The notes: generated by a model not told the origin, from the letters alone. Counted from the stretch's first letter, positions 6,824 to 61,429 are shown. The stretch is 64,000 bases of DNA from Candidatus Kapaibacterium sp. (GCA_038322815.1 JBBQGG010000002.1:41899-105898), one strand, 5' to 3'. Numbers and translations: made by a program.

Positions 6824-9793
6824 ATGTCACGTTTTTACATCTTCGCTGCGCTTTCATGCATTGGACTTTCTTTTCTTTATGCGCCATCCGTTTTTGCGCA
6901 GCAAACCGAGTCTTCGGAAAATGAGCTTTTGAAATCAGCCGTTACCGTGCCAAATGAAATTGGTGTATATAAAGGGATCAATTCCATTCCCGAAGCTATC
7001 CGCAAGACAAAGCCTTTTGCCAGACTGCTTTCGGATATGCAGCACACTTCCGGACTTAATGGTATCTATGAGCGGCAAACACGTATCGAAGCTTTCGGGC
7101 AGTCGCAATCCGATCTGTTCCGCGATGCGATGATCGCGGATAAAGTATCAGGCAGCAAGCTTCCCGTTTTTTCGGCAGCATGGGTAAATGTCGGACCGGT
7201 AAATACGGGAGGATGCACGAAGGCATTAGCCTTTCATCCAACAGATGGAAATACGATCTATGCCGGAGCTGCTGCAGGTGGTGTATGGAAAACAACGAAT
7301 GCCGGATCGTCATGGACTCCGCTGACCGATCTTGTTATACCCGATCTTGCCGTAGCTTCTATAGCTGTCGATCCATCTTCTCCAAATACGATCTATGTCG
7401 GCTCGGGTGATCCCTCCGTTGCCTCTGACGGATTGCCGGGTACAGGGCTGTATAAATCTACTGATGCAGGATCGACATGGAACCGCATGGCTTCAGCAAC
7501 ATTGACCGGAGGCGTAAATAAAGTTCTTGTTCATCCGACCAATTCTAATATCGTTTTTGCATGCAGCTACGATAATGGTCGAGGTGTGTACCGCTCAACA
7601 AATGGCGGAGTAACATTCACAAAAGTATTTACTGCTGCGGCAGTTATCTGGGATATTATCTCCGCGCAAAAGATCGGCAATCAGTTGCTGATGTATTTTG
7701 TCGAAGGAAATCAGCCTGGCGGTACTTCAACAGAATGCGGAGTATATAAATCACTTGATGACGGAGCAACATGGATAAAGATATCTGTAGGCGGTTTACC
7801 GGCAGGGAATACTATTGGTAAATCTGCTCTTGCAATTCCTTCCGGTGATAAAACAAAGGTCTATTGTCTGATGGCAAAACCCGATGGAAATTTACAGGGA
7901 TTATATCTATCCACAAACTCCGGAGTACTATTCAATCAGGTTGCAACAGTTCCTTCGTCGATCTTTAATCCCAACGGCAACGGTCCGCAGGGTTGGTACG
8001 ATCTTTATCTTGCCATCGCGCCTACGACAACACCAAACGATACGCTTTATATCGGAGGGGTCGAAGCGTATTATTCTTTCAATAGCGGCAACTCATGGAC
8101 TGCCTACAGTGATTATAGCGGCACCCATAACGTCCATGTTGATAATCAATCAATTGCTATCGACCCTACCAATTCGCGCAGAGTCTATACTGGAACAGAT
8201 GGCGGAGTCTATCGCTCTATTGATGCGGGGCAAACATGGACATACCGTTCTGCCGGAATGGAAACCATGCGCTTTTACCATATAGGTCTTGATAAGAATG
8301 ATTTCTTAAAAACCTATGCCGGAGCTCAGGATCAAGGAACCTGGAAAGTGACTTCAGGTCAATCACCGTCGCAGATCTTTGGTGGCGATGGGTTCCAGCC
8401 TATTGTCGATCCGAGTAATTCAAATACGATCTATGCTGAGGGTCCGGTCGGCGATCTATTTAAATCAACAAACGGAGGCGGAAATTTTACTTCGATCGAC
8501 GATCCTGCTTTTGTACAGGGAAATGCGAATTTCGAGCCTTCGGATTGGGAAACGCCATTTGCTATGGCACCGAAAAACAGTTCGACACTCTTTACCGGAA
8601 GGCAGCGTCTTTGGCAAAGTGTCAATGGCGGTAGTTCATGGAATGCGATCTCTCCAACACTGGTGCTCAATAATTATACCTATTTAATCGAATCCATCGG
8701 TTTATCGCCTGCCAATAACCAACACTTTTGGACGGGATATCAAGGCGGAAAGATCAGACTTACTACCGATGGCGGTTCGAATTGGGCTGATAAATCTACA
8801 GGATTACCGGGAAGTACTGTCCGTTCGATCGTCTGCCATCCAACCGATGCAGCGTGGGCACTTGCAGCATTTGAATCGTATGGAAATGCAGTGCGTGTTA
8901 TGCGCACCACAAATTCCGGAACTTCGTGGACAAATGTTTCGGGGACTACAGCAAAACTTCCGGGTGTGCCGGTGAATTGTGTGGCGCTTGACTCTACCAG
9001 TCCTTCAACGGTATGGTATGCGGCAACTGATAACGGAATTTATTATACGCGCGATGCAGGAGTTACCTGGTCAATAGCGGGTTCAGGTTTAGGACTTGCT
9101 CCGTGCTGGGATGTCCAGGTACATGCGAATAAGACAACGATCCGAGTCGGAACGCATGGCAGAAGCATTTGGGAAGGCAACGTCAATATTCTTCCCGTCG
9201 AACTTACGGGACTAAGCGCTACGAAAACAATTACCGGCACAAAGCTCGATTGGAAAACAGATAGCGAGCGAAGTAACTCGGGCTTCAAAGTAGAACGCAG
9301 TTATAATTATGCGACATTCGAAGAGCTAAGTTTTATTCCGGGAGCAGGAAATTCAAATACGGAAATTTCGTACAACTATTTCGATCCGAAACATGATGAC
9401 GGATATTATATCTATCGCCTTGAACAAGTTGATCTTGATGGCTCAACCCATTTATCGAATATCGTGGAAGTCCGCTATGGTGCAGCATCTGCACTGCGCT
9501 TAGACCAGAGCTTTCCGAACCCTTTCTTTGCCGGCAGTGCAGCAACAGGAAGTGCCCGAATCCGATACGAACTACCGAATCCCGATGAAGTAACACTGAA
9601 ATTTGTTTCGGTATCCGGCGCCGTCGTTCGTACGCTCATTGACCACCAAACTCAGCAAGCAGGTGAACAAAATATCTTCTGGGATGGTACCGATGATAAG
9701 GGACTTCCTGTGGCAAGCGGAGTATACTATTACAGACTCGATACGAAATCAGGAAGCAGCCTCTGGAATAAAATGATTTTGGTTACGAAGTAA
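6824..9793 (+). CDS. BNR/Asp-box repeat protein (sialidase/GH74-like beta-propellers) with T9SS C-terminal sorting domain
   Basis: It has a signal peptide and many SxDxGxTW Asp-box repeats. The C-terminal ~80 aa match the Por/T9SS sorting-domain pattern. Confidence 0.75.
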   Translation: MSRFYIFAALSCIGLSFLYAPSVFAQQTESSENELLKSAVTVPNEIGVYKGINSIPEAIRKTKPFARLLSDMQHTSGLNGIYERQTRIEAFGQSQSDLFRDAMIADKVSGSKLPVFSAAWVNVGPVNTGGCTKALAFHPTDGNTIYAGAAAGGVWKTTNAGSSWTPLTDLVIPDLAVASIAVDPSSPNTIYVGSGDPSVASDGLPGTGLYKSTDAGSTWNRMASATLTGGVNKVLVHPTNSNIVFACSYDNGRGVYRSTNGGVTFTKVFTAAAVIWDIISAQKIGNQLLMYFVEGNQPGGTSTECGVYKSLDDGATWIKISVGGLPAGNTIGKSALAIPSGDKTKVYCLMAKPDGNLQGLYLSTNSGVLFNQVATVPSSIFNPNGNGPQGWYDLYLAIAPTTTPNDTLYIGGVEAYYSFNSGNSWTAYSDYSGTHNVHVDNQSIAIDPTNSRRVYTGTDGGVYRSIDAGQTWTYRSAGMETMRFYHIGLDKNDFLKTYAGAQDQGTWKVTSGQSPSQIFGGDGFQPIVDPSNSNTIYAEGPVGDLFKSTNGGGNFTSIDDPAFVQGNANFEPSDWETPFAMAPKNSSTLFTGRQRLWQSVNGGSSWNAISPTLVLNNYTYLIESIGLSPANNQHFWTGYQGGKIRLTTDGGSNWADKSTGLPGSTVRSIVCHPTDAAWALAAFESYGNAVRVMRTTNSGTSWTNVSGTTAKLPGVPVNCVALDSTSPSTVWYAATDNGIYYTRDAGVTWSIAGSGLGLAPCWDVQVHANKTTIRVGTHGRSIWEGNVNILPVELTGLSATKTITGTKLDWKTDSERSNSGFKVERSYNYATFEELSFIPGAGNSNTEISYNYFDPKHDDGYYIYRLEQVDLDGSTHLSNIVEVRYGAASALRLDQSFPNPFFAGSAATGSARIRYELPNPDEVTLKFVSVSGAVVRTLIDHQTQQAGEQNIFWDGTDDKGLPVASGVYYYRLDTKSGSSLWNKMILVTK

Positions 9794-9881
9794 TGTGGGT
9801 TAAATATTTCAGAGTATAAATCTGCCTCTGTAACCCTATAAATATCAACATTATAATTGTGCACACCACCCCTTTCCCTTT

Positions 9882-9922
9882 AAAACCAAAGAGTCGGCTT
9901 TTGCCGACTCTTTGGTTTTAGA
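9882..9922. terminator. Rho-independent terminator (perfect 17-bp stem, T-run)
   Basis: The sequence aaaaccaaagagtcggc-tttt-gccgactctttggtttt forms the stem-loop. A-runs and T-runs on both sides make it potentially bidirectional. Confidence 0.7.
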
Positions 9923-10037
9923 ATTTGGGTTGAATTTCATCCTGCAAATATACGAAATTTTTCATCATGTGTCAAGGTGCTCAAACCGTGTTTTTATCAA
10001 CATTTTATCCACATAGGTGTTTGTTGATGAATAATTT

Positions 10038-10674
10038 TTATTTTACATGCTCTATCTTTCTTGTCACAACTTCATTCCCACTTTGCATAGAATCACCGGC
10101 TGCATTATCCATTCGTGAGAAATATTTTTCCTGAACCAAATTTGTGTTCTTGTCGAACTTGGCAAAAGGTGAGATATCGTTTGAATCTAATGTATTATTA
10201 TGCCAGGAATATTGCACTGTATCAATGTATCGCCACCGATATCCTCCGTCATTTGGCTAAATCAATTTTTTCAGGAGAAGGGTAATAAATTCTTTGTTTT
10301 AGTTTTTCACCGATATCCTGCAAACCTATACTCCCGGATGTAAAATCAAGAGGATAGGCATCATAACCTTTGCGTCTCCCACCGAACGGGGCTTGGTTAG
10401 CGGCAATGGCGCTGTATGTAAATACAACATTAATTCCTAGTGAATCCATTAAACGTTGTACTCTTGTCGGGCTTTCCTTCGGAGGGGCACCATTTGTGGT
10501 AGGCCAGCCTTGATCGGGGAAAAAGCTGTCATAAGCTTCAAATCGAATTGAATCCAAATTTTCCCAACCTTTCGATACTACCATCTGAGAGGATGAGAGC
10601 CGAGGAAAGACAAAAAATAAAGAAAACGATACGAGAAGCACAAGGTGCTTTAATAAAATAATAATGCTTTTCAT
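10038..10674 (-). CDS. secreted hypothetical protein; reading frame changes near 10250-10262
   Basis: Listed ORF 10249..10674 has a signal peptide. Its stop is followed in another frame by an open 83-codon stretch (PNDGGYRWRYIDTVQYSWHNNTLDSNDISPF...) that ends at the TAA at 10038-10040. Confidence 0.4.
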
Positions 10675-10692
10675 AGGTATATTCCGTTAAAA

Positions 10693-12000
10693 TCAATGGG
10701 TGATTAAACAGTTAATAACCGATCTATACTGTTCCGTTTGTATTGATAGGATATATGTACCAGAAGGAATCGAATGAACATCAATGGGCATAGTGTGTTG
10801 TCCTTCTGTTTGAATTTTATTCGTAAATGGTGAAAGGAGAACATGGCCTGCAATATCATAAAGTGCAATGCTTACGTGTTGAGCTAGGGGAAGAGAATAA
10901 TTAATCGATACTGTTGAATTGCTCGGATTTGGGATAGTTGAAATGTGTAAGGAATCAGTCGCAGGAGGGTTTACCCAAGAATACCCTCCATTATATGTAT
11001 GAAGAATAGTGCCTCCCGTTCCAACTGCCCATCCATTAATGCTATCGGCAAATGTTATATCATAAAGATCGTTAGGAACTCCGGTGTATTGCCGTGCCCA
11101 CGTTGCACCACTATTTGTAGATCTGAAAATTTTCCCTACTCCACCGGCTACACTAATATTATTCTTGTTCGAAGCTGTAATTGAAGTCATTGGAGTTTCT
11201 TCTGAATCACCCAACAAAGACGCGGTGAAACTATATCCGAGGTTTATGCTTTTGAATATGGCTTTTGTACTACCAAAATAGTTTCCGACTACCATAATGG
11301 TATTCGTATCGAGAAATACAATATCGTCAAATGCCGTCTTATCGAAATACTGTCTGCAAGGATAACGCCAGGAATCTCCACCGTCAGTTGTCAAAAAGAT
11401 ACTTGCTGCGAATTCTCGCGGAACAGGATCAAATAATCCAGAACCGACGGCAATGATGGTGAGAGAGTCATACGAAGCGAAAGCTCGGATTCTATCAGAC
11501 CCCATAAAAGTTGTATCTGCAATCCATGTTTTACCGCCGTCGTATGTTTTGGAGACGTGTTGAGGGCCATACAAGAATCCTCGATTTGGTGTGGTAAAAT
11601 GGACTATGTCAACATCGCGCCCTGCTGCATAATCATTCCAAGTTTCTCCACCGTCCGTAGTAGCTGAGATCCATGCACGGCCTTTAGTACTATGTGCCCA
11701 GCCATGCAACCGATCAAGGAATTGAAATACAAACCTTCCGTTTTGATACGTCCTCCAAGTATTCCCTCCGTCAGTCGTATAATTTGAACCTGCCCAGCCA
11801 GTATCTTTATTTAGAAACTGGATGCTAACGATATCATTCGTTACTCCGCTATTTTGCCTTATCCATCCCTGAACTCCTTCTTGAGATTGCCCGGGTTGAT
11901 TCTCGATTTGATTCTGGGCAAGACTTGCGCCTGCAAAAAATGCTGCGAAAAAGAATGTGATGATGATTTTCATAGAATACTCCTCAATAGGTTTATACAA
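10693..12000 (-). CDS. BNR/Ycf48-like repeat protein with T9SS C-terminal sorting domain
   Basis: It has a signal peptide, repeated TxDGGxTW motifs and a C-terminal sorting domain. Confidence 0.7.
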   Translation of the reverse strand: MYKPIEEYSMKIIITFFFAAFFAGASLAQNQIENQPGQSQEGVQGWIRQNSGVTNDIVSIQFLNKDTGWAGSNYTTDGGNTWRTYQNGRFVFQFLDRLHGWAHSTKGRAWISATTDGGETWNDYAAGRDVDIVHFTTPNRGFLYGPQHVSKTYDGGKTWIADTTFMGSDRIRAFASYDSLTIIAVGSGLFDPVPREFAASIFLTTDGGDSWRYPCRQYFDKTAFDDIVFLDTNTIMVVGNYFGSTKAIFKSINLGYSFTASLLGDSEETPMTSITASNKNNISVAGGVGKIFRSTNSGATWARQYTGVPNDLYDITFADSINGWAVGTGGTILHTYNGGYSWVNPPATDSLHISTIPNPSNSTVSINYSLPLAQHVSIALYDIAGHVLLSPFTNKIQTEGQHTMPIDVHSIPSGTYILSIQTEQYRSVINCLITH

Positions 12001-19390: not shown

Positions 19391-19465
19391 TTGCAAGATT
19401 ACAATCATGAAGTAGAGCGGTCATCGACGACTGAGGGTTTGCCTGTTGCACCCGGATTAGGCGAG

Positions 19466-21277
19466 ATGCTCGATGCGACCAATTTTCCGCGGGAGCCGGC
19501 ACGAATTGATAAACGTGTCGTGATAGTTTCGCTCAGCGCAATGGCTCTTGCGGTTGCCGCAGTATTTGTCGCACAGGCATTGGTGCGCCTGATTGCGCTT
19601 GTGACCAATCTCTCTTTCTTCGGAATATTCTCGTTTGCGCTCACTTCTCCGGCGGGAAATACACTTGGGTTGTTCGTTCTTATCGTTCCGGTCATCGGCG
19701 GTCTTATTGTCGGACTGATGGCGCGTTACGGATCAAAGGGAATCCGCGGGCACGGAATACCCGAAGCAATGGAACAGGTACTTTCGAATGAAAGCAAGAT
19801 TCCGCCATTGATGACGTTCCTCAAGCCGATCTCGGCAGCAATCGCTATTGGCACGGGCGGACCGTTCGGAGCCGAAGGCCCGATTATTGCCACAGGCGGT
19901 GCGCTTGGCTCATTCATCGGCCAGATATTTCCTGTCACACCGACAGAGAGAAAAATTCTGCTGACTGCGGGAGCGGCGGCCGGAATGTCGGCAGTATTCG
20001 GTACCCCGGTTGCAGCTGTGTTGCTTTCAATAGAACTCCTTCTATTCGAATTCAAAGCGCGCTCCATTATTCCTGTAGCTTTAGCCGCTACAACAGCAGC
20101 CGGTGTGCGTATGGTATTCGAAGGGTCAGCTCCTGTCTTTGCGATGACAAATCTTTCGCAGCCTTCGGGCACCGCGCTTTCGATCTATATTTCTATTGGT
20201 GCGATAGTCGGAGTTTTTTCAATATTTGTAACAAAAGCTATTTATGCGATCGAAGATCTTTTCGAAAAAATTCCGATCCATTGGATGTGGTGGCCGGCGA
20301 TCGGTGCAGTTGCCGTCGGAGTCTGCGGTTTTTTCGTACCGCGCACGCTCGGAGTCGGATACAGTAATATCAGTGATCTGCTTTCGCATAATCTGACAGT
20401 TCAGTTTGCGTTGATCTTATGTACTGTAAAATTTATTTCGTGGTCTATCTCTTTAGGAAGTGGGACTTCGGGAGGAACGATGGCTCCACTTTTTACCATC
20501 GGCGCAGGGCTTGGCACTGTTTTTGGCGCAGCTGCAATGTGGATTCTTCCTGCTGCAGGGATTGACCTGCGTATCGCAGCGCTCGTTGGTATGGCAGCCC
20601 TTTTTGCAGGCGCAACGCGAGCATTACTTACTTCTGTCGTGATGGCATTCGAGACGACGCTGCAACCATTAGGTTTGCTTCCACTTCTGGGCGGCTGCAC
20701 GGCTGCGTATTTAGTATCGAGTCTCTTCATGAAGAATACGATCATGACGGAGAAGATTGTTCGTCGTGGCGTGCATGTGCCATCGGAATACTCTGCAGAC
20801 TATCTCGAACAAATTCTTGTACGAAATGTGGTCTCAAAAGAACTCACGACATTGCGAGGCAATCAAACGGTAAAAGAAGTGCAGGAATGGGTTGCATCCA
20901 AAGCCGAAGGCTCGACACATCAGGGGTTTCCGATCATTGATGAAAATGGACGTCTGCTTGGCGTCGTTACAAGACGAAACTTCCTGAATACCGATCTTCC
21001 TCCTCAAACTCATGTACACGAACTTATTAAACGTTCTCCGACAGCAGTGTATGATGATTCGACATTGCGTGAAGCCGCCGATCACATGGTCAATCACGAT
21101 GTCGGCAGACTGCCGGTGCTTTCGCGTATGGAACCTGGAAAGCTTATTGGTATTATTACACGCAGCGACGTTCTGGCCGGGAATAAAAAAAGGTTGGCAG
21201 AATTACAACGAGAAAGACAGACCCTTACTCTGAAAGAAATTTTAACCCAGCCAAAAAGGGAAAGAACAGCAGTATAA
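19466..21277 (+). CDS. ClC-family chloride channel / H+-Cl- exchanger with C-terminal CBS pair
   Basis: It has the GHGIPE and GAEGP selectivity motifs and two C-terminal CBS domains. The ATG at 19466 is preferred over the TTG at 19391. Confidence 0.85.
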   Translation: MLDATNFPREPARIDKRVVIVSLSAMALAVAAVFVAQALVRLIALVTNLSFFGIFSFALTSPAGNTLGLFVLIVPVIGGLIVGLMARYGSKGIRGHGIPEAMEQVLSNESKIPPLMTFLKPISAAIAIGTGGPFGAEGPIIATGGALGSFIGQIFPVTPTERKILLTAGAAAGMSAVFGTPVAAVLLSIELLLFEFKARSIIPVALAATTAAGVRMVFEGSAPVFAMTNLSQPSGTALSIYISIGAIVGVFSIFVTKAIYAIEDLFEKIPIHWMWWPAIGAVAVGVCGFFVPRTLGVGYSNISDLLSHNLTVQFALILCTVKFISWSISLGSGTSGGTMAPLFTIGAGLGTVFGAAAMWILPAAGIDLRIAALVGMAALFAGATRALLTSVVMAFETTLQPLGLLPLLGGCTAAYLVSSLFMKNTIMTEKIVRRGVHVPSEYSADYLEQILVRNVVSKELTTLRGNQTVKEVQEWVASKAEGSTHQGFPIIDENGRLLGVVTRRNFLNTDLPPQTHVHELIKRSPTAVYDDSTLREAADHMVNHDVGRLPVLSRMEPGKLIGIITRSDVLAGNKKRLAELQRERQTLTLKEILTQPKRERTAV

Positions 21278-21381
21278 TAAAATATGGAGGAAATACTTTT
21301 TTTAATTGCCTGTACAACAACCTATGAGGTAATTCCCCTCAAATTTATTGCAATTCAAACTTAATTTATTAATGATTAATT

Positions 21382-22791
21382 ATGTCGAAGGCAATCTCTT
21401 CAGGTAACATGTCCGATACACAGGTTCATCCTGGTAGCGATAATGTTCTCGGTATTCGAAGAAGAGATCAATTTATTCATTCTGCCATCATCGGAGTATT
21501 AGTCGGCGGAGTTGCAGTACTTTTCCAGCTTTCACTGGATTTTGTTGAAACAGCCAGAATATCATTACTTGGAAGTCTTAAATCGTATCCAACTTTTGGT
21601 TGGCTTGTCTTACCTATCATCCTTGGAGCTGTTGCAGGGTTAGGAGGTTTTCTAACTCAGAAATTTGCGCCTGAAGCTTCAGGAAGTGGCATCCCACACG
21701 TTAAAGCAGTACTGCTCAATATTCGTGAGCTGAATTGGAAAAAATTATTGCCCGTAAAGTTCTTTGCCGGATTGATGTCAATCGGAGCCGGTCTTTCCTT
21801 AGGTCGTGAAGGTCCGACAGTGCAAATGGGAGCCGCTATCGGTAAGGGAGCTTCAGAGTATTTGCATACGGGAAAGCATGCAACAAAACGGTTGATCTCT
21901 GCCGCTGCAGGTGCGGGACTTTCAGCAGCCTTCAATGCCCCGCTTGCAGGTTTCATATTTGTTATTGAGGAATTGCAGAAGGAGCTATCGCCCTTAACAT
22001 TCGGAAGCGCCTTTATTTCCTGTGTAACGGCAGTCGCAATTAATAGAATATTTACAGGGCAGCTTCCATCTTTTCATATTCGCGGTTACCCGATACCTCC
22101 GTTAACTGCCCTGCCGTTGTTCGCACTCATGGGGCTTGTCTCCGGATATGCAGGTATTGCTTTCAATAAGATACTGATTGCGGCAGTCAGGAGATCTCGT
22201 AAGCTAACGATTCCGACATGGATAAAGACTGCAAGCATGGGCGTTCTTGCAGGAGTCATCGCTTGGTGGCTTCCGGAAGCTATCGGCGGCGGACATCGTA
22301 CAGCCGAAAGCATCTTGCAGGGAAAATTTGCTTCTTCAGATGTAATCGCCTTTCTTCTTATCCTGTTCGTAGTGAAGTTTGGCTTCACTATACTTTCATA
22401 TTCTACCGGCGCTCCGGGCGGGATCTTTGCACCGCTCCTTGTACTCGGAGCGATCATTGGCTTAATATTCGGTCAGCTTAGCGGGCTCTTTTTTCCGGAG
22501 TTAGGGACTACGCCGGCTGCATTTGCTGTTGTTGGAATGGCTGCAATGTTCACCTCGATTGTCCGTGCACCGCTTACAGGTATCGTACTAATTTTAGAAA
22601 TGACGGGAAATCAGGAGCAGCTTTTTGTTCTTATCCTTGCATGTCTGATCTCATATTTAGTTGCAGAGCATTCCGGAAATAAGCCAATTTATGAATCACT
22701 GATGGAAGAGGATCTTAACAGCTCTGAAAAACTGTTGGCATTCGAAGAGATGGAAAGAGAATCTGCAGCGATGGATGATTCTGATGCTTAA
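21382..22791 (+). CDS. ClC-family chloride channel / H+-Cl- exchanger (no CBS domains)
   Basis: It has the motifs GSGIPHVKA, GREGPTVQMG and GIFAPLLVLGA. Confidence 0.85.
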   Translation: MSKAISSGNMSDTQVHPGSDNVLGIRRRDQFIHSAIIGVLVGGVAVLFQLSLDFVETARISLLGSLKSYPTFGWLVLPIILGAVAGLGGFLTQKFAPEASGSGIPHVKAVLLNIRELNWKKLLPVKFFAGLMSIGAGLSLGREGPTVQMGAAIGKGASEYLHTGKHATKRLISAAAGAGLSAAFNAPLAGFIFVIEELQKELSPLTFGSAFISCVTAVAINRIFTGQLPSFHIRGYPIPPLTALPLFALMGLVSGYAGIAFNKILIAAVRRSRKLTIPTWIKTASMGVLAGVIAWWLPEAIGGGHRTAESILQGKFASSDVIAFLLILFVVKFGFTILSYSTGAPGGIFAPLLVLGAIIGLIFGQLSGLFFPELGTTPAAFAVVGMAAMFTSIVRAPLTGIVLILEMTGNQEQLFVLILACLISYLVAEHSGNKPIYESLMEEDLNSSEKLLAFEEMERESAAMDDSDA

Positions 22792-22859
22792 TAATCAACA
22801 GATGTCATAACCTGCTCGTCTTCTGTAATATTTGTAGTACTTCAGTTTACATTATTTAT

Positions 22860-23237
22860 ATGATCACATTCCTCGGACTTCGTACGTGTATTTATCACGT
22901 TTCCGATCTGCAGCAAGCGAAAGAGTGGTACTCCGCTGTCCTGATCTCGCAGCCATATTTCGATGAGCCGTTTTATGTTGGCTTTGATGTAGGCGGTTTT
23001 GAACTCGGGCTTGATCCTAATATGGAGGGCATCACTCCCGGCACAAACATTGATACCTATTGGGGAGTCGATGATGTGAAGGATGAATATACAAGGCTCT
23101 TAGATTTCGGCGCTACCGAGCATCATGCTCCGCAAGATGTCGGCGGTGGGATTATCGTTGCAACCGTACTCGATCCGTTCGGCAATGTGTTTGGGATTAT
23201 TGAGAACCCGAATTTCGATAAAAAAGGAAGGGTATAA
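22860..23237 (+). CDS. VOC-family (glyoxalase / bleomycin-resistance fold) protein
   Basis: It is 125 aa long and shows the paired beta-alpha-beta-beta-beta module pattern. Confidence 0.7.
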   Translation: MITFLGLRTCIYHVSDLQQAKEWYSAVLISQPYFDEPFYVGFDVGGFELGLDPNMEGITPGTNIDTYWGVDDVKDEYTRLLDFGATEHHAPQDVGGGIIVATVLDPFGNVFGIIENPNFDKKGRV

Positions 23238-23685
23238 TATGATCTTCACTATCGCCATTAAAAATGATCTTCCCGATTGGCTTGAGATGGCGCTTGCTCT
23301 TTGGCCATACGAAAGTAAGACAGATATGGAGTCGCTCTTTCATTCTTTATTTGCTTCGAAAAATGATGAGATCCTGATTGCAAGAACTGATGAAGGCATC
23401 GCCGTTGGTTTTGCGAATATTTCGATCAGAAAAGATTATGTTGAAGGTTCGAATTCATCTCCCGTAGGGTACATCGAAGGAATTTATGTCAAACCTGAAT
23501 TTCGCAAACATGGAATAGCGCGGGAAATGCTCAGATTAGGAGAAGAGTGGTCGCGCTTACGAGGATGTACTGAGTATGCATCTGATACAGAATTGCATAA
23601 TGTCGATAGTCAGAATTTCCACCTCCGCGCAGGATTTGAGAAGGCAGAGGTAATCGTACATTTTATTAAGAAAATTTCTCTCTAA
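23238..23685 (+). CDS. GNAT N-acetyltransferase, AAC(6')-type I-like
   Basis: An RBS (aggaagg) precedes the ATG at 23238. The segments LWPY and GYIEGIYVKPEFRKHGIAREML and the C-terminal FHLRAGFEK resemble AAC(6')-I enzymes. Confidence 0.6.
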
Positions 23686-23755
23686 CTTTAGTTCGCAGTG
23701 ATTGATCGAACATTTTCGTCTGATAAAGAGTAATAATTAAGGAGAAAAACATCCT

Positions 23756-23944
23756 ATGCAAATATTAACTTTCAAAGAAGAAGCAAAGCTACTCGTTGAC
23801 TCACTACCTGAGAATTCCTCATGGAACGATCTCATGTATGAAATATACGTCCGCCAGGAAATAGAAAAAGGTCTTGACGATATAGAAGCCGGGCGTTATA
23901 AAACTCATGAGGAAGTAGAAAAAATCTTTGGCGTTACTGAATGA
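23756..23944 (+). CDS. type II antitoxin (putative addiction-module component)
   Basis: It is a 62-aa protein with the segment DLMYEIYVRQEIEKGLDDIEAGRYKTHEEV. Its stop overlaps the toxin start as ATGA. Confidence 0.55.
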   Translation: MQILTFKEEAKLLVDSLPENSSWNDLMYEIYVRQEIEKGLDDIEAGRYKTHEEVEKIFGVTE

Positions 23945-24220
23945 GAATTATTTGGTCTGACCGCGCTATTGATAGGCTCGCCGCTATCCGATCATATATC
24001 GCAGAGGACGCTCCGCTTACAGCGAATAGAGTCGATCGAAAGTATCATCCGATCGACCCGCAGACTACAAGACTTTCCTCATTCCGGTAGAGTAGTGCCT
24101 GAATATAATATTAAAGAAATTCGCGAAGTGATCTGAGCGCCTTATCGTATTCTTTATCATATTAAAGACGAGCAGATAGAGGTCATCACTGTCTTGCATT
24201 CAAAGCAATTACTCCGGTAA
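23941..24220 (+). pseudogene. ParE/RelE-family toxin, decayed (frameshift plus in-frame TGA)
   Basis: Frame 1 reads MRIIWSDRAIDRLAAIRSYIAEDAPLTANRV. Frame 2 continues IESIIRSTRRLQDFPHSGRVVPEYNIKEIREVI, then TGA, then APYRILYHIKDEQIEVITVLHSKQLLR. Confidence 0.5.
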
Positions 24221-24264
24221 TTCTCGGAACCACCCCATAGGTGCCTATATGTTCAAGTAGTTAT

Positions 24265-24329
24265 CAGTCGTTAGTCTTGTGTCGTTAGCAAAATTATGCT
24301 AAAGACACAAGACTAACAACTAACGACTG
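24265..24329. promoter_or_regulatory. 65-bp imperfect palindrome with GTTAG/CTAAC pentamer repeats immediately upstream of the umuC-like ORF
   Basis: The left arm cagtcgttagtcttgtgtcgttagc pairs with the right arm gacacaagactaacaactaacgactg. Confidence 0.4.
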
Positions 24330-24398
24330 CTCTTCATTATCGGACTCATTGACTGCAACAATTTTTACGTTTCCTGCGAGCGGACGCTCGATCCTTCG

Positions 24399-25727
24399 TT
24401 GAATGGGAAACCTGTTGTCGTGCTTTCGAATAACGATGGCGTTGTGATCTCGCGCTCGAACGAAGTGAAGGCGATGGGCGTCTCGATGGCAGGGGCTGCG
24501 TATCAGTACCGCGATCTGTTTAAGAAGTACGGCGTCCGTGTTTTTAGTGCGAATTTTAATTATTATATGCAGGTCTCCGAGCAAGTCATGCGCATCGTGC
24601 GCGAGTACTCGCCGGAAGTGGAAGTCTATTCCGTTGACGAAGCATTCATTAATCTGCGCGGATTGGAATGGAAAAAACCGACGGAGTATCTTCGCGGATT
24701 ACGCGAGCAAATTTTGCAGGAAGTAAAAATTCCAGTCTCTATCGGCATTGCCGAATCGAAAACTCTGACAAAGGTATGCTCCGAATTTGCAAAGAAAGAT
24801 CCGTTACATGAAGGCATACTAAATCTCTATGGTCTGCCTGAAGAGCGAAATGAGTATTTGCGTGAACTCAAAGTCGGCGATCTTTGGGGAGTGGGCAGGC
24901 AGTTCGAAAAATTATTGCATGAGAAGAAAATCTTTCATGCCTTAGAACTTGTCAATATGCCGGATCAATGGATCTTAAATCATTTGCATATCGGCGGATT
25001 AAAAATGGTCTGGGAATTGCGAGGAATTTCCTGCATTGAATTTGCGCCGAATCTTGCAGCTCCGAAGCAGATCATGCGTTCACGGTCGTTCGGAAAATAT
25101 GTTACTTCGCTTGCTGAATTAAAAGAAGCGGCTGCACTTTTTATGAGCATGGCAGCCGAATCGCTTCGCGCTCATAAACTCGTTGCCAAAGTTGCCGGAG
25201 TATTTGTACATACCAATCGCTTCAATGACGATCCGAAATATTCTAACTCAGTTGCCGATGCACTCATCGAACCAACGTCTTACACTCCTGCGCTCATTGC
25301 CCATGTGCATAGGTTGCTTGATCATATTTATCGCGAAGGTTTCCGATATCAAAAGCTCGGCATTATCTTAAGCGATCTTGCCGAAGGAGATGAGAAGCAG
25401 CTTACGCTTTCGTACGATGCGCGTTCCGAAAAAAAACAAGAGTCTTTGATGCATACGCTCGATACTTTAAATGCCAAATACCGCGAGAATCATCTTGTTA
25501 TGCTTGCTGCCGAAGGCACGGAGCATGGCTGGCAATCAAAGCAGGAGCATCTTTCGCAGGCAAAACCTGAATATGTCGATCCAAAAGAACGCACGCGTTT
25601 CCTCACCACAGTCTCAGCTCCCGCAACAACATCAAAACGCAAAGACCGCTATACGCTTGAACCGGCAATGCAATCACGAGCGCTGGGTAAACAAGTTGCT
25701 GATAGAATTATGATGGCGGGAAATTAA
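24399..25727 (+). CDS. umuC: Y-family translesion DNA polymerase, UmuC-like
   Basis: It has SNNDGVVISRSNEVKAMG and the catalytic SVDEAF. The conserved N-terminus (LIDCNNFYVSCERTLDPSLNGKPVVV) is in frame upstream to about 24324, with no ATG, GTG or TTG there. The track start at 24399 is a TTG. Confidence 0.8.
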   Translation: MNGKPVVVLSNNDGVVISRSNEVKAMGVSMAGAAYQYRDLFKKYGVRVFSANFNYYMQVSEQVMRIVREYSPEVEVYSVDEAFINLRGLEWKKPTEYLRGLREQILQEVKIPVSIGIAESKTLTKVCSEFAKKDPLHEGILNLYGLPEERNEYLRELKVGDLWGVGRQFEKLLHEKKIFHALELVNMPDQWILNHLHIGGLKMVWELRGISCIEFAPNLAAPKQIMRSRSFGKYVTSLAELKEAAALFMSMAAESLRAHKLVAKVAGVFVHTNRFNDDPKYSNSVADALIEPTSYTPALIAHVHRLLDHIYREGFRYQKLGIILSDLAEGDEKQLTLSYDARSEKKQESLMHTLDTLNAKYRENHLVMLAAEGTEHGWQSKQEHLSQAKPEYVDPKERTRFLTTVSAPATTSKRKDRYTLEPAMQSRALGKQVADRIMMAGN

Positions 25728-25755
25728 AAATTAAAAATTTGGGGACTCTCTCCAG

Positions 25756-25780
25756 TGGGGCGGACTCTTAATCCGCCCCA
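25756..25780. terminator. GC-rich hairpin between convergent genes (weak terminator candidate)
   Basis: The sequence tggggcgga-ctcttaa-tccgcccca forms a 9-bp stem. No clear T-run follows. Confidence 0.3.
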
Positions 25781-25828
25781 TTGGACTCAACAAATTCGCA
25801 TCCTTAATTTTACTTTTTTAATTTTTAA

Positions 25829-27178
25829 CTATTTTTCATATCTTCTCTTCCCAATTAAAGTATAATCATCCTGCTCCAATGCCCGCACGATCACTTCCCT
25901 ATTTTTATACATCGAGATTGTCGAATAATTTTTTAGGGCAATTGCAGAATACATTATCACTGCAGAGATGAATGTAATTCCTGCAACTCGTTGTAACCAT
26001 GTCCTCTTCAAAGGTTTACATAAGGCATAGAGAGAGTAAAGCACCATTAAGGGAAAAAACAGAACGGCTGCATGTGATGGCGGTTCGACTTTGGAAAATA
26101 ATGACAGAAAGAAGAAAAGAAGAAACCCGCACAGAGCAAGAAAGGCGACATTGCGAAACATGATGTCCCCTTGTTTCCTGCTGAAGAAACTATAGAGCAA
26201 GAAGATCGCCTGTGCAAGACCGACAACTCCGACAATGATCGTGAATGGCGCAGCCCAGGGATAATCTTTTAAGAATGCTATCCTCTCATCTATATTACCG
26301 CCGATAAATCTCGTCACATCGAAACTTGCATACGCAAGATAGGTGGAAAGTAATTTAAAAATATCCCCGGTGTGCTCCAAATGAAGTTCTACCATGCCGG
26401 AAACGCTCTTCCCTTTTTCGGATGAAAGACCGTAGTTTAGTAGTGTAGGAATGAGAAGACTTCCTGTAGTTAAACAGCCGACGAAAAATGAACCGGTATT
26501 CTTTACGATCAATCGAATGTCTTTCGTGCGAAGCAAGTAGTAAAATGCCACTGCCGTGAACGGACCGAGCAATACCCAGGACATGTGCAATTGGAATATC
26601 CAGAATATTCCGAATCCCAAAAAGAAAAAGCATAGCCACTGCGGCAAAATATTTTTTCGCAACGGCGGATAGATCTCAAAGATGCCGATAAAAAACAAGA
26701 TCGCTCCGGGAATCACATGGGATGGATTAACGATGCGAGTAAAATAACAGATAGACCACGGAATCATAAAAACATAGACCCAAATAAATATTCGCGAATA
26801 ATCCGGCATACGCTTCGATGCATACCATGCAAGGAATCCCATACTCAGCGTGAGTAAAATATTCAGAACGATAAACGGAGCTTCCGGAATTTTCCAAATG
26901 AACCACCCTGTCGAAACAAGGTAGCCTTGCAATGCGCCGGGAATCTGCGAGCCGTTATACACCAGATCAGCGCCGAAATAGGGAAATGTATGAGTCGTAA
27001 ATGATTTCAGCCCGATCAGATAAATTTGCAGCACATCTTCATCCGGAAACCAGAACTCTGTCGTGAGGCTATAATGGAATCGGAAGATGACTATTCCGAT
27101 GATAAGCAGCCAAAAACCATATTTGCCGAAGAAGCTATTTGCATTCATAGAATGCAAAGTTACGGCACATCTCAACAT
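25829..27178 (-). CDS. polytopic membrane protein (possible GT-C-like glycosyltransferase)
   Basis: It has about 12 predicted TM helices. No diagnostic motif was recognised. Confidence 0.45.
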   Translation of the reverse strand: MLRCAVTLHSMNANSFFGKYGFWLLIIGIVIFRFHYSLTTEFWFPDEDVLQIYLIGLKSFTTHTFPYFGADLVYNGSQIPGALQGYLVSTGWFIWKIPEAPFIVLNILLTLSMGFLAWYASKRMPDYSRIFIWVYVFMIPWSICYFTRIVNPSHVIPGAILFFIGIFEIYPPLRKNILPQWLCFFFLGFGIFWIFQLHMSWVLLGPFTAVAFYYLLRTKDIRLIVKNTGSFFVGCLTTGSLLIPTLLNYGLSSEKGKSVSGMVELHLEHTGDIFKLLSTYLAYASFDVTRFIGGNIDERIAFLKDYPWAAPFTIIVGVVGLAQAIFLLYSFFSRKQGDIMFRNVAFLALCGFLLFFFLSLFSKVEPPSHAAVLFFPLMVLYSLYALCKPLKRTWLQRVAGITFISAVIMYSAIALKNYSTISMYKNREVIVRALEQDDYTLIGKRRYEK

Positions 27179-27254
27179 GTCAATGGGAGAACCGGAGTGC
27201 TGTAAATTGGGTTTTACTCTAGAGTGGGATTTCCCACTTCTTCATATTTCCAAA

Positions 27255-27563
27255 ATGCCATCAAAGACAATAAAAAAAACGCAACCCCATAGGACGGAGA
27301 GACTTCTTTCCGATCCACAGGTGTACCGTGCGAAAGTCGATTCCAAACACAGAATCGTCTTACGATCGGCTAAGTATGAATATTATAATATTTATGAACG
27401 CGAAGATGGCTCCGCCATTCTTATACCACAAATCGTTAAGGAAGTGCCATTATCCCGCGCCACACTTAAAATGATAGACGCTGCCGTAAAGAATATGAAA
27501 CAGGGCATCGCGTCTAAACGCATTGATCTTGACGCCATACTTTCTCAAAAAAGAGTCAAATGA
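27255..27563 (+). CDS. AbrB/MazE/SpoVT-family antitoxin-like DNA-binding protein
   Basis: It has a looped-hinge-helix motif (YRAKVDSKHRIVLRS). The upstream 27087 start overlaps the divergent gene and is rejected. Confidence 0.5.
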   Translation: MPSKTIKKTQPHRTERLLSDPQVYRAKVDSKHRIVLRSAKYEYYNIYEREDGSAILIPQIVKEVPLSRATLKMIDAAVKNMKQGIASKRIDLDAILSQKRVK

Positions 27564-28066
27564 CCTTCCATATTCGTATGGGTGTACCAGAAATGGAAGC
27601 AGTTTGGAATGGCTTGTCTTCTCGATATCAGTCCGGCAGTCTTGGTCCCGCAGAAAGAAAATTCTTTAAAAAATTTGTAAAGATGTTAGATCTTCTCAGG
27701 ACTAATCCTCAGCACAATAGTCTGTGGTCGCATGAGATCGAAATACTTTCCAAGCTCTATGGCGTGAAGATATTTCAATCATATCTGGAAAACAATACAC
27801 CGGCTGCCGGAAGAGTATTTTGGGCATACGGACCGGAAAAACAGAAATCACCGTGCTCGGGTTGGAACCTCATCCGCAGAAAGGAAACTATAGCAGAGTT
27901 AAACTTTCCGATGTCCCAAATTAGCAATAACTTTCTAAAACATCACCTTCTTCGCAATAACACCCTTCGCCGATTGCAACACCAAAAAAGCAATTCGCGC
28001 ATTTATTCCGTTTGCATCGAAGGTATATGTTCCCCGCGCAGAGATATTGATGTTTGCTCGCTTTAG
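27560..28066 (+). CDS. putative toxin partner (RelE/ParE-superfamily-like N-terminal ~100 aa with unexplained C-terminal extension)
   Basis: Its start overlaps the antitoxin stop as ATGA. The segment LRTNPQHNSLWSHEIEILSKLYGVKIF...AGRVFWAYGPE loosely resembles RelE/YoeB. The last 130 nt overlap the convergent gene 27935..28985. Confidence 0.3.
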   Translation: MTFHIRMGVPEMEAVWNGLSSRYQSGSLGPAERKFFKKFVKMLDLLRTNPQHNSLWSHEIEILSKLYGVKIFQSYLENNTPAAGRVFWAYGPEKQKSPCSGWNLIRRKETIAELNFPMSQISNNFLKHHLLRNNTLRRLQHQKSNSRIYSVCIEGICSPRRDIDVCSL

Positions 28067-28985
28067 CAATCTTCCATCGACGGTATAGAGAGAGGCGGTG
28101 GTTTCGCCGAGTGGGGATGAGGCTTGAAACGCAATCAAATGATCTATTAACCAAATTTTAACAAAATTGTTTGATTGTGATTGATCAGCAACTGTATTTT
28201 TTGGGTTCGGTGGGAACAGAATTTGTCTAGGGAAAAGGGTATCTCTACAAGTTATGAATGCTGAATAGCATTCACAATAAAGATAATTTCTATGAAATCC
28301 GCTTAATATGCCGCTACTGTCAAAAGTAATTGGGAGTAGATAAACTGCTGTATCATATGCTCCGTAACTATTAGCAAGATCTATGTGCATTTGCAGAGAC
28401 TTAAAATGAATTGTAGAATTGTTTAAATCAACATATCCTGACAATTGGATCGTAGCATAGGTATAAGTATTAGTATCTTCCCATGAAAAAATTGTCGAAA
28501 GACCTATCATTTTTCCGTAAGAGGATTTTGATATTTCAAATGGTATAAGAAATGCTGCTAATGGGACCCTTGGTGATATATCAAATCTCCAACTTAATTT
28601 CCATTTCTGATATCCTATCCTCACTGAATCACCCACACCTTGACCACCTAAATCCTCCTGTGCAAATTTTGAATGTAGAAAATCTAAGGAAAAAACACTT
28701 AGAGTCCTCTTATTACTCATTCCCTTCACCGTTTGCACCGCAACATGCCCACCGGCGCCTTTCCCAGTGTCGGGCAAATTACAAATTATCAGTGTATCGC
28801 TCCAGGAAACAATGCCAACCGTTGTATCTTCGATGGAAACGCTGCCGCTATCAATTCCAAATGAGCCATGAATTTGCAATTGACTTTTAACTTCGTCAGC
28901 CATGAGATAACTGATCGAAGGGCTGCTGCGCATGGACGCGGCTTGCGAAGAGGAAAATAACGAGTAACGAAAGGATGTATTTCAT
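27935..28985 (-). CDS. secreted protein with T9SS-like C-terminal domain; signal peptide in a different frame from the body
   Basis: The ATG at 28985 encodes MKYILSLLVIFLFASRVHAQQP, then a stop. The body ORF (track 27935..28933) is in the +1 frame, so a 1-nt indel lies near 28900-28930. Confidence 0.45.
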
Positions 28986-29044
28986 GATACTAAAATACAA
29001 CAATTACAATAAAAAGGTGAGCGAGTATTGATAATTGCCATATT

Positions 29045-29136
29045 GTCTGACCTGGATTGGGGAGATTAAGGGATTAAGATGATTAAGATCTCTCATCTTC
29101 ATAATCTGTAAAATCTCCCCAAATCCAGGTTCAGAC
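29045..29136 (-). terminator. long inverted repeat (~21-bp stems) with internal gattaagat direct repeats, downstream of ftsK
   Basis: The left arm gtctgacctggattggggagatt pairs with the right arm aatctccccaaatccaggttcagac. The loop contains gattaagatgattaagatc. Confidence 0.4.
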
Positions 29137-37756: not shown

Positions 37757-37790
37757 TAAAGGCACCTATTAATAAATAGGTGCCTTTTTA
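37757..37790 (+). terminator. Rho-independent terminator of the S1-like gene
   Basis: The sequence aaaggcacctatt-aataa-ataggtgccttt forms the stem-loop and is followed by tttatt. Confidence 0.7.
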
Positions 37791-59659: not shown

Positions 59660-59732
59660 GCTTCCTTAGCTCAGTTGGTAGAGCAAATGACTCTTAATCA
59701 TTGGGTCGCGGGTTCGAGTCCCGCAGGGAGCA
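59660..59732 (+). tRNA. tRNA-Lys (anticodon CTT)
   Basis: It folds into a cloverleaf. The acceptor stem is gcttcct/agggagc, the anticodon stem is aatga/tcatt, the loop ctCTTaa gives the anticodon, and the T-arm is gcggg-ttcgagt-cccgc. No CCA is encoded. Confidence 0.85.
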
Positions 59733-60266
59733 CGACTGTCAAAGAACGAACGGGCTGTAATAAAGTCTCGAAAAGAGTGAACTCATTTGCGAAAAAGTCC
59801 TCAAAACAGCCCAAATTCTATGATTTTTACTTGTAGAGTTCATTCCTAGTTTCGTTAATCCGCATAACAAAAATACAAAAATTTTTCTATCAAGGGATAA
59901 TTTCCGGCTATTCCTACCCGTAAAATCTTCGTCAGTTCTTCGTCACCTAAAGTAAGCATCCCTCTACTTTTTAAGAGTTCGTATATTATTACCCGGAATT
60001 GAACTGGAAAGAGACTCAAGGATTTCTATTGTTGATTACAAAGGTAAGGCACCACACAATACCATAGGTGGGAAGGTGTAGAATAGAAAAATAGATCATT
60101 CATAAATCTTAACCCGGACCAAGTCAGAATTCGCATTTCCAATAGGTGCTCATAGCAGAAAGTCTTTTATTGTACTCCAGATTTTCTTATCGTATATTGT
60201 TCAAAAAGTGATAGGCACCAATTTGGCTGCAAATAACCTCTTTTGATAGTATCAACTTTGTAAAGT

Positions 60267-60301
60267 TAACAAGAAATTTTCCGCCAGAAAATTTCTTGTT
60301 A
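60267..60301. promoter_or_regulatory. perfect 15-bp inverted repeat (taacaagaaattttc-cgcca-gaaaatttcttgtta) ~120 bp upstream of the island operon
   Basis: The repeat is read directly from the sequence. No T-run follows, so it looks like an operator rather than a terminator. Confidence 0.4.
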
Positions 60302-60418
60302 CAGGAAAAACTTAAAAAAGTATATAGAAAAAGACAAAATCGACAGGCATAGGTGAAAGCCAGCAGAGCCGAAAAGTACAAAAGATGCAAAAAGAATCAA
60401 AACTAACTCTTAACAAAA

Positions 60419-61429
60419 ATGGACGACATCAAACTTGATTCCGATATAGAAACACAGTGGAAAGAACTTTCTAAATGTCTTCATGAAATCAAAGATACCG
60501 AGGAACGTATCGCTATTCTCATCAAAAGAATCGAGGTTGTCAATTTACAACGAAGTGATTGGATGGCCCAGAATCCCCGTAAGGCAGGTTCGTATGTTCT
60601 CTTTGGGAGCAAATTACTCCATGAAATATCTAACCAAATTGAAATACTAAAAAAGCAAGGAGACATTAAGAAGGCTGAGGAAGCCAAACAGCGATTACAC
60701 GACATTTTGACCCCACAAGAACCTGACATCATTTTTCTAAACGAAAAAGATAGGGTTTTCTTAAAGGAAAGGGGTGGGATAGAAAAGTTGGATGCAATAT
60801 GGAAAAATGTTTCGCAAGGAACAATAACTATTTCAGATACAGCAATAAAAGTGAGTTTACTTCGACAGTTAAATGAACTTTGGTATTATCCGAACATACA
60901 ACTACAAGAAGCAAAAAATACAGCGAAACGAATAGATCTATTAAGGAATCTCATTTCTGAGTCACAAAAGGTTATAGAATGTGAACCTGAGAACCACTTA
61001 CAAAAACTATTTATATTAGGAGCGAAATCAGGGGTAAAATATTATGAAGGCGTTTTAAATTCAGAAAGAAAAAAGATTATTTCTTCTTCACTCACATGCC
61101 CATATCCTCACGACTCAGAACAAATGGCTTCATACAAACGTGTAGCAAAGGTGTTCGAAAAACAATCATTTTGGTCCGGTTCTCTAACGGATTTCGTTTT
61201 TGCAATGAATGAACTTGCGGTGAAAGGTTTCTTAAAAGCAAACGATCTTGATGAAGCATTATCGGAAACATTTGCTCATAAACCAAAAGGAAAAAAAGAA
61301 GTCCAAAAACTTACTGCGAAGATCATCAACAACCGCCGTCGTAATATGAAGGGAGGTCGTTACACTGAATCAGAAGAAATTCATACTACTGTCGTTACAA
61401 TGTTAAAACAGATAAAACCGAAGGAATAA
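60419..61429 (+). CDS. hypothetical protein (helical; C-terminal ~110 aa paralogous to next gene; CPYPHDSEQ motif)
   Basis: ORF-track support, plus an internal paralogy alignment with the 61434 ORF. Confidence 0.5.
   Translation: MDDIKLDSDIETQWKELSKCLHEIKDTEERIAILIKRIEVVNLQRSDWMAQNPRKAGSYVLFGSKLLHEISNQIEILKKQGDIKKAEEAKQRLHDILTPQEPDIIFLNEKDRVFLKERGGIEKLDAIWKNVSQGTITISDTAIKVSLLRQLNELWYYPNIQLQEAKNTAKRIDLLRNLISESQKVIECEPENHLQKLFILGAKSGVKYYEGVLNSERKKIISSSLTCPYPHDSEQMASYKRVAKVFEKQSFWSGSLTDFVFAMNELAVKGFLKANDLDEALSETFAHKPKGKKEVQKLTAKIINNRRRNMKGGRYTESEEIHTTVVTMLKQIKPKE

Follow-up and report, generated by a model that had tools for sequence, protein, structure and literature searches.

In the textbook arrangement, the mutagenic Y-family DNA polymerase UmuC requires UmuD' and stands under LexA control, and independent rewirings of mutagenic-polymerase control have been reported for Bacteroidetes, Acinetobacter and streptococci. 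Among genes with an unusual initiation codon, infC of Escherichia coli, encoding initiation factor 3 (IF3), starts at an ATT that is conserved and autoregulatory. Bacteroidetes lack canonical LexA; their SOS response relies on S24-domain repressors, which bind two palindromic boxes, CTAA-N5-TTAG and GGA-N5-TCC, and the promoters of their translesion polymerases bear motifs specific to the lineage, in some cases more than one each (PMC8565304). The sigma-E/sigma-H promoters of corynebacteria and mycobacteria have the consensus GGAAC-N18-19-GTT (PMC10012870). Here, a UmuC-like polymerase gene and its surroundings were analysed at positions 22860-25727 of a 64 kb stretch of DNA from Candidatus Kapaibacterium sp. 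(GCA_038322815.1), the whole of which is referred to as the window. The significance of the locus would be regulatory, in that a whole UmuC-type clade from an uncultured Bacteroidota-related lineage has neither UmuD nor LexA linked to it and carries an invariant directional element instead; the genes, singly viewed, are ordinary.

The polymerase open reading frame (ORF), of 463 codons at 24336-25727 on the plus strand, contains the Pfam domains PF00817 (IMS, 1e-37), PF11799 (IMS_C, 2e-20) and PF13438 (DUF4113, 1e-8). Its best NCBIfam model is UmuC NF002955, at 312.7 bits yet below the cut-off of 431, with DinB models reaching 163 bits or less. Comparisons were made with the polymerase neighbourhoods of relatives, labelled L001, L002 and so on, covering 4-10 kb of flank per clade locus in addition to the one 64 kb window; JGI-hosted contigs were compared as gene lists, and a metagenome scan contributed one further close relative. 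Loci with a polymerase identity of 49% or more were taken as the clade, the non-clade loci being more distant homologues at 36-45%. Of these loci, L001 (Candidatus Kapaibacterium sp. JBBQWV010000004) is closest, its polymerase being 96% identical to that of the window.

Six-frame ORFs of all loci were searched by phmmer with the E. coli LexA and UmuD proteins and then with a profile derived from the matches. These searches placed an S24 ORF within the flanks of 124 of the 153 non-clade loci, and most of the homologous loci retrieved were true umuD-umuC pairs. There was no S24, UmuD or LexA ORF in any of 15 clade loci, the window included, nor did Pfam-based gene lists for 13 clade neighbourhoods include an S24/UmuD-like gene, resulting in a combined count of none in 20; a RecA gene was likewise absent from the window. 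A first-pass annotation of the window, made from the sequence alone, had noted that the polymerase lacks a UmuD/LexA-like partner, which holds both here and in every clade neighbourhood examined, and had attributed this to decay of the partner. The contrast between 0 of 20 clade neighbourhoods and 124 of 153 distant loci indicates that orphan status is a trait of the clade, such that the lack of UmuD linkage, as read from the loci compared, is an old clade-wide property and not the product of local decay.

What precedes the clade polymerases instead is a tripartite, promoter-like element, GGAAC-N7-TAGGTGC-N6-GTT, located in the window at 24226-24253 on the plus strand and starting 5 nt after the stop of a toxin pseudogene described below. 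The element is present upstream of 14 of the 16 polymerases, with no mismatch in 13 loci spanning 49-96% protein identity and a single mismatch in L164, in flanks that are unalignable among relatives. Exact matches are confined to the clade, and 27 matches to the tripartite motif in viral contigs lay in unrelated, apparently mostly coding sequence and are consistent with chance. In an ungapped alignment of the 14 sequences, GGAAC, T.GGTGC and GTT alone are invariant, and between 12 and 157 nt separate GTT from the start codon, a spread to be expected of a promoter with variable leaders downstream. Positions 24237-24248, inside the element, form the quasi-palindrome ATAGGTGCCTAT. We infer an extracytoplasmic function (ECF) sigma-type promoter with GGAAC as the -35 and GTT as the -10 sequence, and a long spacer that would hold a TAGGTGC(C) box. 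Readings of the element as a sigma-54, MerR-type or Bacteroidetes -33/-7 promoter were judged by eye and set aside, as either the invariant letters or the spacing misfit. Described LexA boxes (CTGT-N8-ACAG, GAAC-N4-GTTC, GTTC-N7-GTTC, CTAA-N5-TTAG, GGA-N5-TCC and others), scanned by regular expression in the 250 nt upstream at 14 clade loci, were not conserved, with two sporadic matches in L001. A second exact copy of the element precedes a 130-aa ORF adjoining the polymerase in L161. This ORF belongs to a 126-130-aa protein without a Pfam match (…PMFGCYALYTGDRIILILRE…) whose gene lies upstream of the polymerase, within a few kb of it, in three genomes (L161 4377-4769, L081 1018-1392 and L002 3272-3652), the L161 copy being the one that bears its own exact element.

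Between this promoter and the polymerase coding sequence there are two changes that set the window apart from its relatives, the first of which is the start codon. As the first-pass annotation had observed, no ATG, GTG or TTG precedes the conserved N-terminus: an in-frame TAA occupies 24321-24323 and the first canonical in-frame start is the TTG at 24399 (codon 22). The catalytic Asp6 (24351) lies upstream of that codon, leaving the complete enzyme without a canonical initiation codon. The close homologues all begin MI(G/A)(L/V)(I/V)DCNNFY, the relatives having MIGLIDCNNFY with an ATG, and the window has ATT at 24336, which aligns with ATG in 16 of 16 relatives with start sequence and differs from it by a single G>T change. 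The public annotation begins at the internal Met47 (P0001, 417 aa). Lineage-specific changes, counted with four outgroups, number 6 non-synonymous and 41 synonymous in the window as against 7 and 52 in L001, and the polymerase ORF thus shows no sign of relaxed selection. Given this equal ratio, the ATT change is either recent, tolerated or an error. A second assembly of the ATT allele was not found, the 90% cluster containing the L001 protein alone.

The second change is an imperfect palindrome in the leader (24256-24331, plus strand), with arms at 24256-24293 and 24294-24331 that are 82% complementary. Its core spans 65 bp (24265-24329), extended to 76 bp, and no inverted repeat elsewhere in the 64 kb window matches it in size. 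As RNA it would form a 5' untranslated hairpin of -40 to -43 kcal/mol (z -6.7 to -8.9), with a stem ending 5 nt before the ATT; the window leader folds at -39.7 kcal/mol (z -8.9), while the leaders of relatives are insignificant (z -2.3 to +0.5). The right arm is made of heptads of the ACTAACN type (GCTAAAG ACACAAG ACTAACA ACTAACG ACTGCTC) and can be aligned by eye to the L002 (TGCTAAAGACTACGAACTAACATCTGCCCC-ATG) and L161 leaders, identifying it as the ancestral leader. The left arm is the reverse complement of the right arm minus one heptad, approximately 93% identical over the common part by manual count, and this near-identity points to a palindrome that arose by recent inverted duplication of a heptad-repeat leader. 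A six-codon mini-ORF (ATG CTA AAG ACA CAA GAC TAA, 24296-24316, plus strand) starts at an ATG in the hairpin loop, out of the polymerase frame, and stops 19 nt before the ATT; L002 lacks it, having CTG where the window has this ATG. Scans upstream of the polymerase for a sigma-70 promoter or an intrinsic terminator found neither, the palindrome having no T-run. An Rfam search of the palindrome at permissive E-values returned only sub-threshold, miRNA-like hairpin matches, with none at gathering score.

Initiation that does not depend on Shine-Dalgarno (SD) sequences favours open leaders, and ATT and CTG starts are weakly active. SD-like tetramers precede 4 of 37 long ORFs in the window, which is about background, and in such an SD-independent lineage the combination of a closed leader with a near-cognate start should strongly depress translation. 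The proposed sequence of events is therefore one in which the promoter stayed intact and two derived changes, the ATT start and the leader hairpin, arose between promoter and coding sequence, both of which would cut translation sharply in a lineage that lacks SD use and needs an open leader. The mutagenic polymerase would thereby be freshly silenced or strongly turned down, with its ORF still intact and catalytically complete. As a single-genome observation so far, ATT together with the new hairpin would be a natural example of a mutagenic polymerase shut down translationally.

The best-surviving alternative, although an improbable one, is that the ATT, hairpin and mini-ORF constitute a working translational gate, functional in the manner of infC, with polymerase made only once the hairpin has opened, for example through a ribosome engaged on the mini-ORF, under stress or at low IF3 levels. 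The ATG at the loop apex suits such a mechanism, the ORF and promoter are fully conserved, and tight control of a mutagenic polymerase is plausible. However, ATT, hairpin and mini-ORF occur in none of the 16 relatives, and this single-genome state carries no sign of selection. Similarly doubtful is that the ATT reflects an error of consensus or assembly, in which case the polymerase gene would be a normal, ATG-initiated one and the hairpin alone would be real. This would account for a change of a single base in one assembly of the allele, with the promoter intact and the ORF whole at a sister-like ratio of non-synonymous to synonymous changes. However, the neighbouring palindrome is imperfect and so not an assembly chimera, which suggests that the region was faithfully assembled, and substitution errors are uncommon in short-read consensus sequence.

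The TAGGTGC box of the promoter element recurs elsewhere in the clade. The 12-mer ATAGGTGCCTAT, of which the TAGGTGCC box forms part in many genomes, was found at one mismatch or fewer 21 times across the 184 kb of clade loci, where 0.86 occurrences are expected, and four times in 1.33 Mb of other loci, and the 8-mer TAGGTGCC/GGCACCTA occurred 24 times in the clade loci against 5.2 expected, with 20 of the 24 copies in the 13% of sequence outside long ORFs. A second architecture, TATAYT-N13-(A)NNGGCACCTA(T), also written TATAYT-N13-(A)NNGGCACCTAT and TATAYT-N13-ANNGGCACCTA, holds the box inverted at a fixed distance after TATAYT, and the pattern TATAYT-N15-17-GCACCWA was present seven times in the clade loci and nowhere else in the loci compared. 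These sites are found before a VOC-GyrI-like-GNAT operon in L004, L162 and L163 (also L196), before a TcmP/DUF5131 pair in L001, before the polymerase in L193, near a contig end in L164 and at 60193-60221 in the window. Upstream of the L196 polymerase, both architectures occur in degenerate form only. A literature search for the corresponding 10-mer returned eukaryotic primer and construct sequences only.

Several of the genes next to these sites were noted in their own right. The operon near the polymerase (L004 ~10236-10300, L162 9258-9327, L163 8745-8835 and L196 6250-6300) encodes a two-domain VOC and a GNAT, joined in L162 and L163 by a GyrI-like protein, each copy being preceded by TATATT...GGCACCTAT; in E. 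coli, GyrI/SbmC is SOS-induced. In the variable region downstream of the L001 polymerase, positions 8973-10887 hold a TcmP-like gene (375 aa, with a GMT-like winged helix-turn-helix domain) and a DUF5131 / phage Gp37-Gp68 gene as a pair, with a ATAGGCACCT box abutting the ATG of the TcmP-like gene. In the window, low-GC sequence (0.36-0.40) extends from behind a tRNA-Lys gene (59660-59733) to 64000, and in this stretch two paralogous genes without assigned function (60419-61429 and 61434-62063, C-terminal halves 43% identical) are followed by ORFs of 226 aa and 271 aa; window 59660-64000 looks like an island integrated at tRNA-Lys. TATATT-N12-ATAGGCACCAAT at 60193-60221 precedes the first gene of this stretch, with a second box at 60142-60153, and that gene may belong to the same putative regulon. 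At 37758-37787, between an S1-like gene and a converging type IX secretion system (T9SS) tail gene, the window has a bidirectional terminator hairpin, AAAGGCACCTAT-TAATAA-ATAGGTGCCTTT followed by a T-run, whose stem has the sequence of the promoter box; this may be a coincidence or a hint that the box is also a structural repeat.

As the box is shared by the promoters of the polymerase, the VOC-GyrI-GNAT operon and the TcmP/DUF5131 pair, it is probably bound by a single regulator, specific to the clade, of a small regulon of stress or DNA-damage type, and this regulator would also act at the housekeeping-type promoters of that regulon. A broader and more tentative possibility is that the tripartite element and the TATAYT variant together mark a previously undescribed Kapabacteria stress or DNA-damage regulon independent of LexA and UmuD. 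Under that tentative scheme, an ECF-type sigma factor and/or a TAGGTGCC-binding regulator might have replaced LexA/UmuD control of the polymerase, and the polymerase might be co-regulated with genes for drug binding and detoxification (VOC, GyrI-like and GNAT) and with the TcmP/DUF5131 pair. Quite unlikely, by comparison, is that the TAGGTGCC/GGCACCTA copies are short intergenic palindromic repeats of the repetitive extragenic palindromic (REP) kind rather than sites for a regulator or sigma factor. Most paired copies are indeed inverted and able to form hairpins, and one pair makes the terminator stem at 37758-37787. However, the box keeps a fixed spacing and orientation relative to GGAAC and GTT in 14 orthologous promoters with otherwise unalignable flanks, and likewise relative to TATAYT in seven sites; in addition, L194 keeps the box without its palindromic half, and the L195 pair is direct.

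The remainder of the block was analysed for its origin. The VOC, GNAT, antitoxin, broken toxin, polymerase and palindrome that the first-pass annotation had described are all present where it placed them, all on the plus strand. The 125-aa VOC (22860-23237, glyoxalase / bleomycin-resistance fold; Pfam Glyoxalase and Glyoxalase_6, E about 5e-6) follows a gene for a 469-aa CLC channel (21382-22791, plus strand), and a gene for a 449-aa membrane protein converges on the polymerase from the opposite strand. The 148-aa AAC(6')-I-like GNAT acetyltransferase (23239-23685) scores 167.1 bits with NCBIfam NF043067, the equivalog model for AAC(6') group E, which passes the curated cut-off of 140, and the PDB yields no matches at E<=1e-5 other than AAC(6')-Ig, -Iy and -Ih (4EVY, 1S3Z and 4E8O). 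It falls far under the cut-off of every allele-specific AAC(6') model. Its earlier description as AAC(6')-like is borne out by these matches. The accompanying remark that the gene has a strong ribosome-binding site unusual in this genome is fair as to the rarity of SD sequences, whereas the site itself, AGGAAGGG, sits inside the coding end of the VOC gene.

The intact 62-aa antitoxin ORF (23756-23944) has a weak RelB/ParD match (E 2.4e-4, below cut-off) and overlaps a ParE/RelE-family toxin pseudogene (23941-24220), the antitoxin stop and toxin ATG sharing the sequence ATGA. Three-frame translation of the toxin gives MRIIWSDRAIDRLAAIRSYIAEDAPLTANR in one frame and then IESIESIIRS...REVI*APYRILYHIKDEQIEVITVLHSKQLLR in the next, the lesions being a 1-nt frameshift at ~24025-24035 and an in-frame TGA at 24134-24136. 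Repaired at both lesions, the toxin matches ParE_toxin (PF05016) over positions 1-88 of 89 (E 3e-16) and also TIGR02385, in agreement with the original description of an intact antitoxin, here 62 whole codons, beside a decayed ParE toxin. The arrangement has the overlapping upstream antitoxin gene of a ParDE/RelBE module and lacks an intact ParE/RelE-fold toxin ORF. The repaired toxin is 34% identical to the intact toxin of L002 in the corresponding slot, and the window antitoxin is unrelated in sequence to the antitoxin partnering that homologous toxin. The antitoxin is preceded by AAGGAG, a clearer SD sequence than that of the GNAT, and in a genome with background-level SD use this suggests a foreign origin for the module. 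A ParDE-type addiction module thus landed upstream of the polymerase, the toxin now being dead while the antitoxin ORF persists; loss of the toxin with retention of the antitoxin is a common end state of decaying toxin-antitoxin modules.

Around this module, gene order is largely conserved. In a blastn comparison with L001, window positions 21418-23217 (CLC and VOC) and 24336-27165 (polymerase and membrane protein) align and only the intervening stretch differs, L001 having in order the VOC, a 290-aa gene, the GNAT, an opposite-strand 586-aa T9SS gene and then the polymerase. The order CLC/VOC/GNAT ... polymerase ... 440-aa membrane protein is kept in L001, L161, L165 and L196, with a similar gene list for the P0004 contig, and polymerase identity among these syntenic relatives is 69-96%. 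In the same four loci the VOC orthologue likewise follows the CLC-channel gene. The GNAT counterpart in L001 (3707-4162) is read as orthologous from sequence, and those of L161 and P0004 were assigned by size and Pfam family. In GC content the block does not differ from the remaining window sequence, and there is no integrase, att site or tRNA bounding the block, the sole window tRNA being at 59660. The corresponding slots of relatives hold differing insertions and differing toxin-antitoxin modules, such as the intact ParE-type pair of L002 directly upstream of the polymerase promoter and HicAB just downstream of the polymerase in L163, and the polymerase neighbourhood appears to be a landing zone for toxin-antitoxin modules. 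With the VOC, GNAT, polymerase and flanks syntenic and the slots for toxin-antitoxin and T9SS cargo variable, the neighbourhood is native rather than the scar of a single element, and the VOC, AAC(6')-I-like GNAT and polymerase are shown, on the loci compared, as vertically inherited genes.

Among the side observations in this region, toxin-antitoxin modules around the polymerase were located at L002 3739-4280 and 5334-5866 (YoeB-like and ParE-type pairs) and at L163 6428-6873 (HicAB), with a ParE-like toxin gene at L001 11027-11281. Directly upstream of the VOC, the window has tandem genes for CLC-type chloride channels (19391-22791; 628 aa then 469 aa), an arrangement kept in L165, and homologues of the 628-aa protein in L162 and L165 bear CBS domains. 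Beyond the membrane-protein gene are two overlapping small ORFs of 158 aa and 168 aa without a Pfam match (27087-28066), which fall in a stretch unalignable at the DNA level (window 27165-29129 versus L001 8845-11551).

The first-pass annotation had read the block as what is left of an integrated mobile or resistance element after decay of its toxin and of the UmuD partner. A VOC, an AAC(6')-like GNAT, a toxin-antitoxin pair and a Y-family polymerase are content typical of accessory DNA, the toxin is truly decayed, and the interval from VOC/GNAT to polymerase varies among close relatives. Overall this origin is very unlikely and largely refuted by synteny: the VOC, GNAT and polymerase genes, with the flanks on either side, keep their order in relatives with as little as 69% polymerase identity, the base composition is unremarkable, neither an integrase nor an att site is present, and the 20 clade neighbourhoods hold no trace of an S24 gene. 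Least credible of the alternatives is that the palindrome is a protein-binding operator rather than an RNA hairpin, whether a LexA-like SOS box, as had been suggested from its GTTAG pentamers, or an operator of the neighbouring ribbon-helix-helix (RHH) antitoxin; it does sit between promoter and gene, and some RHH repressor operators are repeated heptads in converging arrays like those seen here, but GTCGTTAG was found solely inside the palindrome, a blastn-short search with the 81-nt segment found no other copy in the window or in ~160 loci, the leaders of relatives lack it, it contains neither a CTAA-N5-TTAG nor a GGA-N5-TCC arrangement, and the antitoxin's own upstream region has a different inverted repeat, GTTCG-N11-CGAAC.

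Taken jointly, the account that we consider probable is that the block, instead of being a decayed mobile element, belongs natively to the chromosome of a Kapabacteria-like bacterium as an ordinary, turnover-prone neighbourhood, in which an ECF-type promoter would drive a UmuD-less polymerase that would be either newly silenced or much reduced at the level of translation. Several points weigh against parts of this account. The spacing of the element is 20 nt in 14 of 14 sequences as against the N18-19 of the sigma-E/sigma-H type, an invariant TAGGTGC in the spacer is atypical for ECF promoters, and a cognate ECF sigma gene was not found in the window or the clade loci. The orientation of the TAGGTGC box is fixed per promoter class, which is odd for a symmetric operator, and some copies may be structural, as the same 10-mer builds the terminator at 37758-37787. 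UmuD could sit elsewhere in these genomes, outside the 4-10 kb flanks or the 64 kb window. Finally, the ATT rests on one metagenome-assembled genome, and either this codon or the CTG at 24327 could still initiate translation at a low level.

Compared with known systems, the accessory genes of the block have close counterparts. Like the AAC(6')-I enzymes that are chromosomally encoded and particular to a species, among them AAC(6')-Ig and -Ih from Acinetobacter and the cryptic -Iy from Salmonella, the GNAT is chromosomal and conserved within its lineage; it differs in coming from an environmental lineage and in lying below the allele-specific cut-offs, and acetyl transfer to aminoglycosides is predicted. 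The toxin-antitoxin pair resembles decaying ParDE/RelBE type II modules in its two overlapping small genes and in a repaired toxin that is a full-length ParE_toxin, while its antitoxin resembles the RelB/ParD family weakly. As in infC, ATT stands at the initiator position of an otherwise intact gene, with the difference that the ATT of the window is derived and found in one of 17 genomes. The tripartite element shares with ECF group 4 (sigma-E/sigma-H/sigma-R) promoters a -35 of GGAAC and a -10 of GTT in a directional arrangement a short distance upstream of the gene; the host is unrelated to Actinobacteria, and the consensus is an actinobacterial one (PMC10012870).

The polymerase itself shares with E. 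coli UmuC of the umuDC (Pol V) system the IMS, IMS_C and DUF4113 domains, the last with a RecA-N-terminal-like motif, and has a clamp-motif-like QLTLSY at the position of QLNLF in UmuC; the larger subclade differs in having a C-terminal tail of ~40 aa. In contrast to umuDC under LexA, the clade has no linked umuD or LexA gene and no described LexA box upstream. If the tentative regulon is real, it would represent another independent rewiring of mutagenic-polymerase control, as in Bacteroidetes, Acinetobacter and streptococci, and would supply a motif with which the Kapabacteria stress regulon could be read directly from metagenome-assembled genomes. The nearest parallel is the Bacteroidetes SOS regulon, with which the clade has in common its broad lineage, the likewise missing canonical LexA and the presence of lineage-specific motifs before its polymerases, and from which it differs in the directional form of its element, GGAAC-N7-TAGGTGC-N6-GTT, and in having no S24 gene in the sequence examined.

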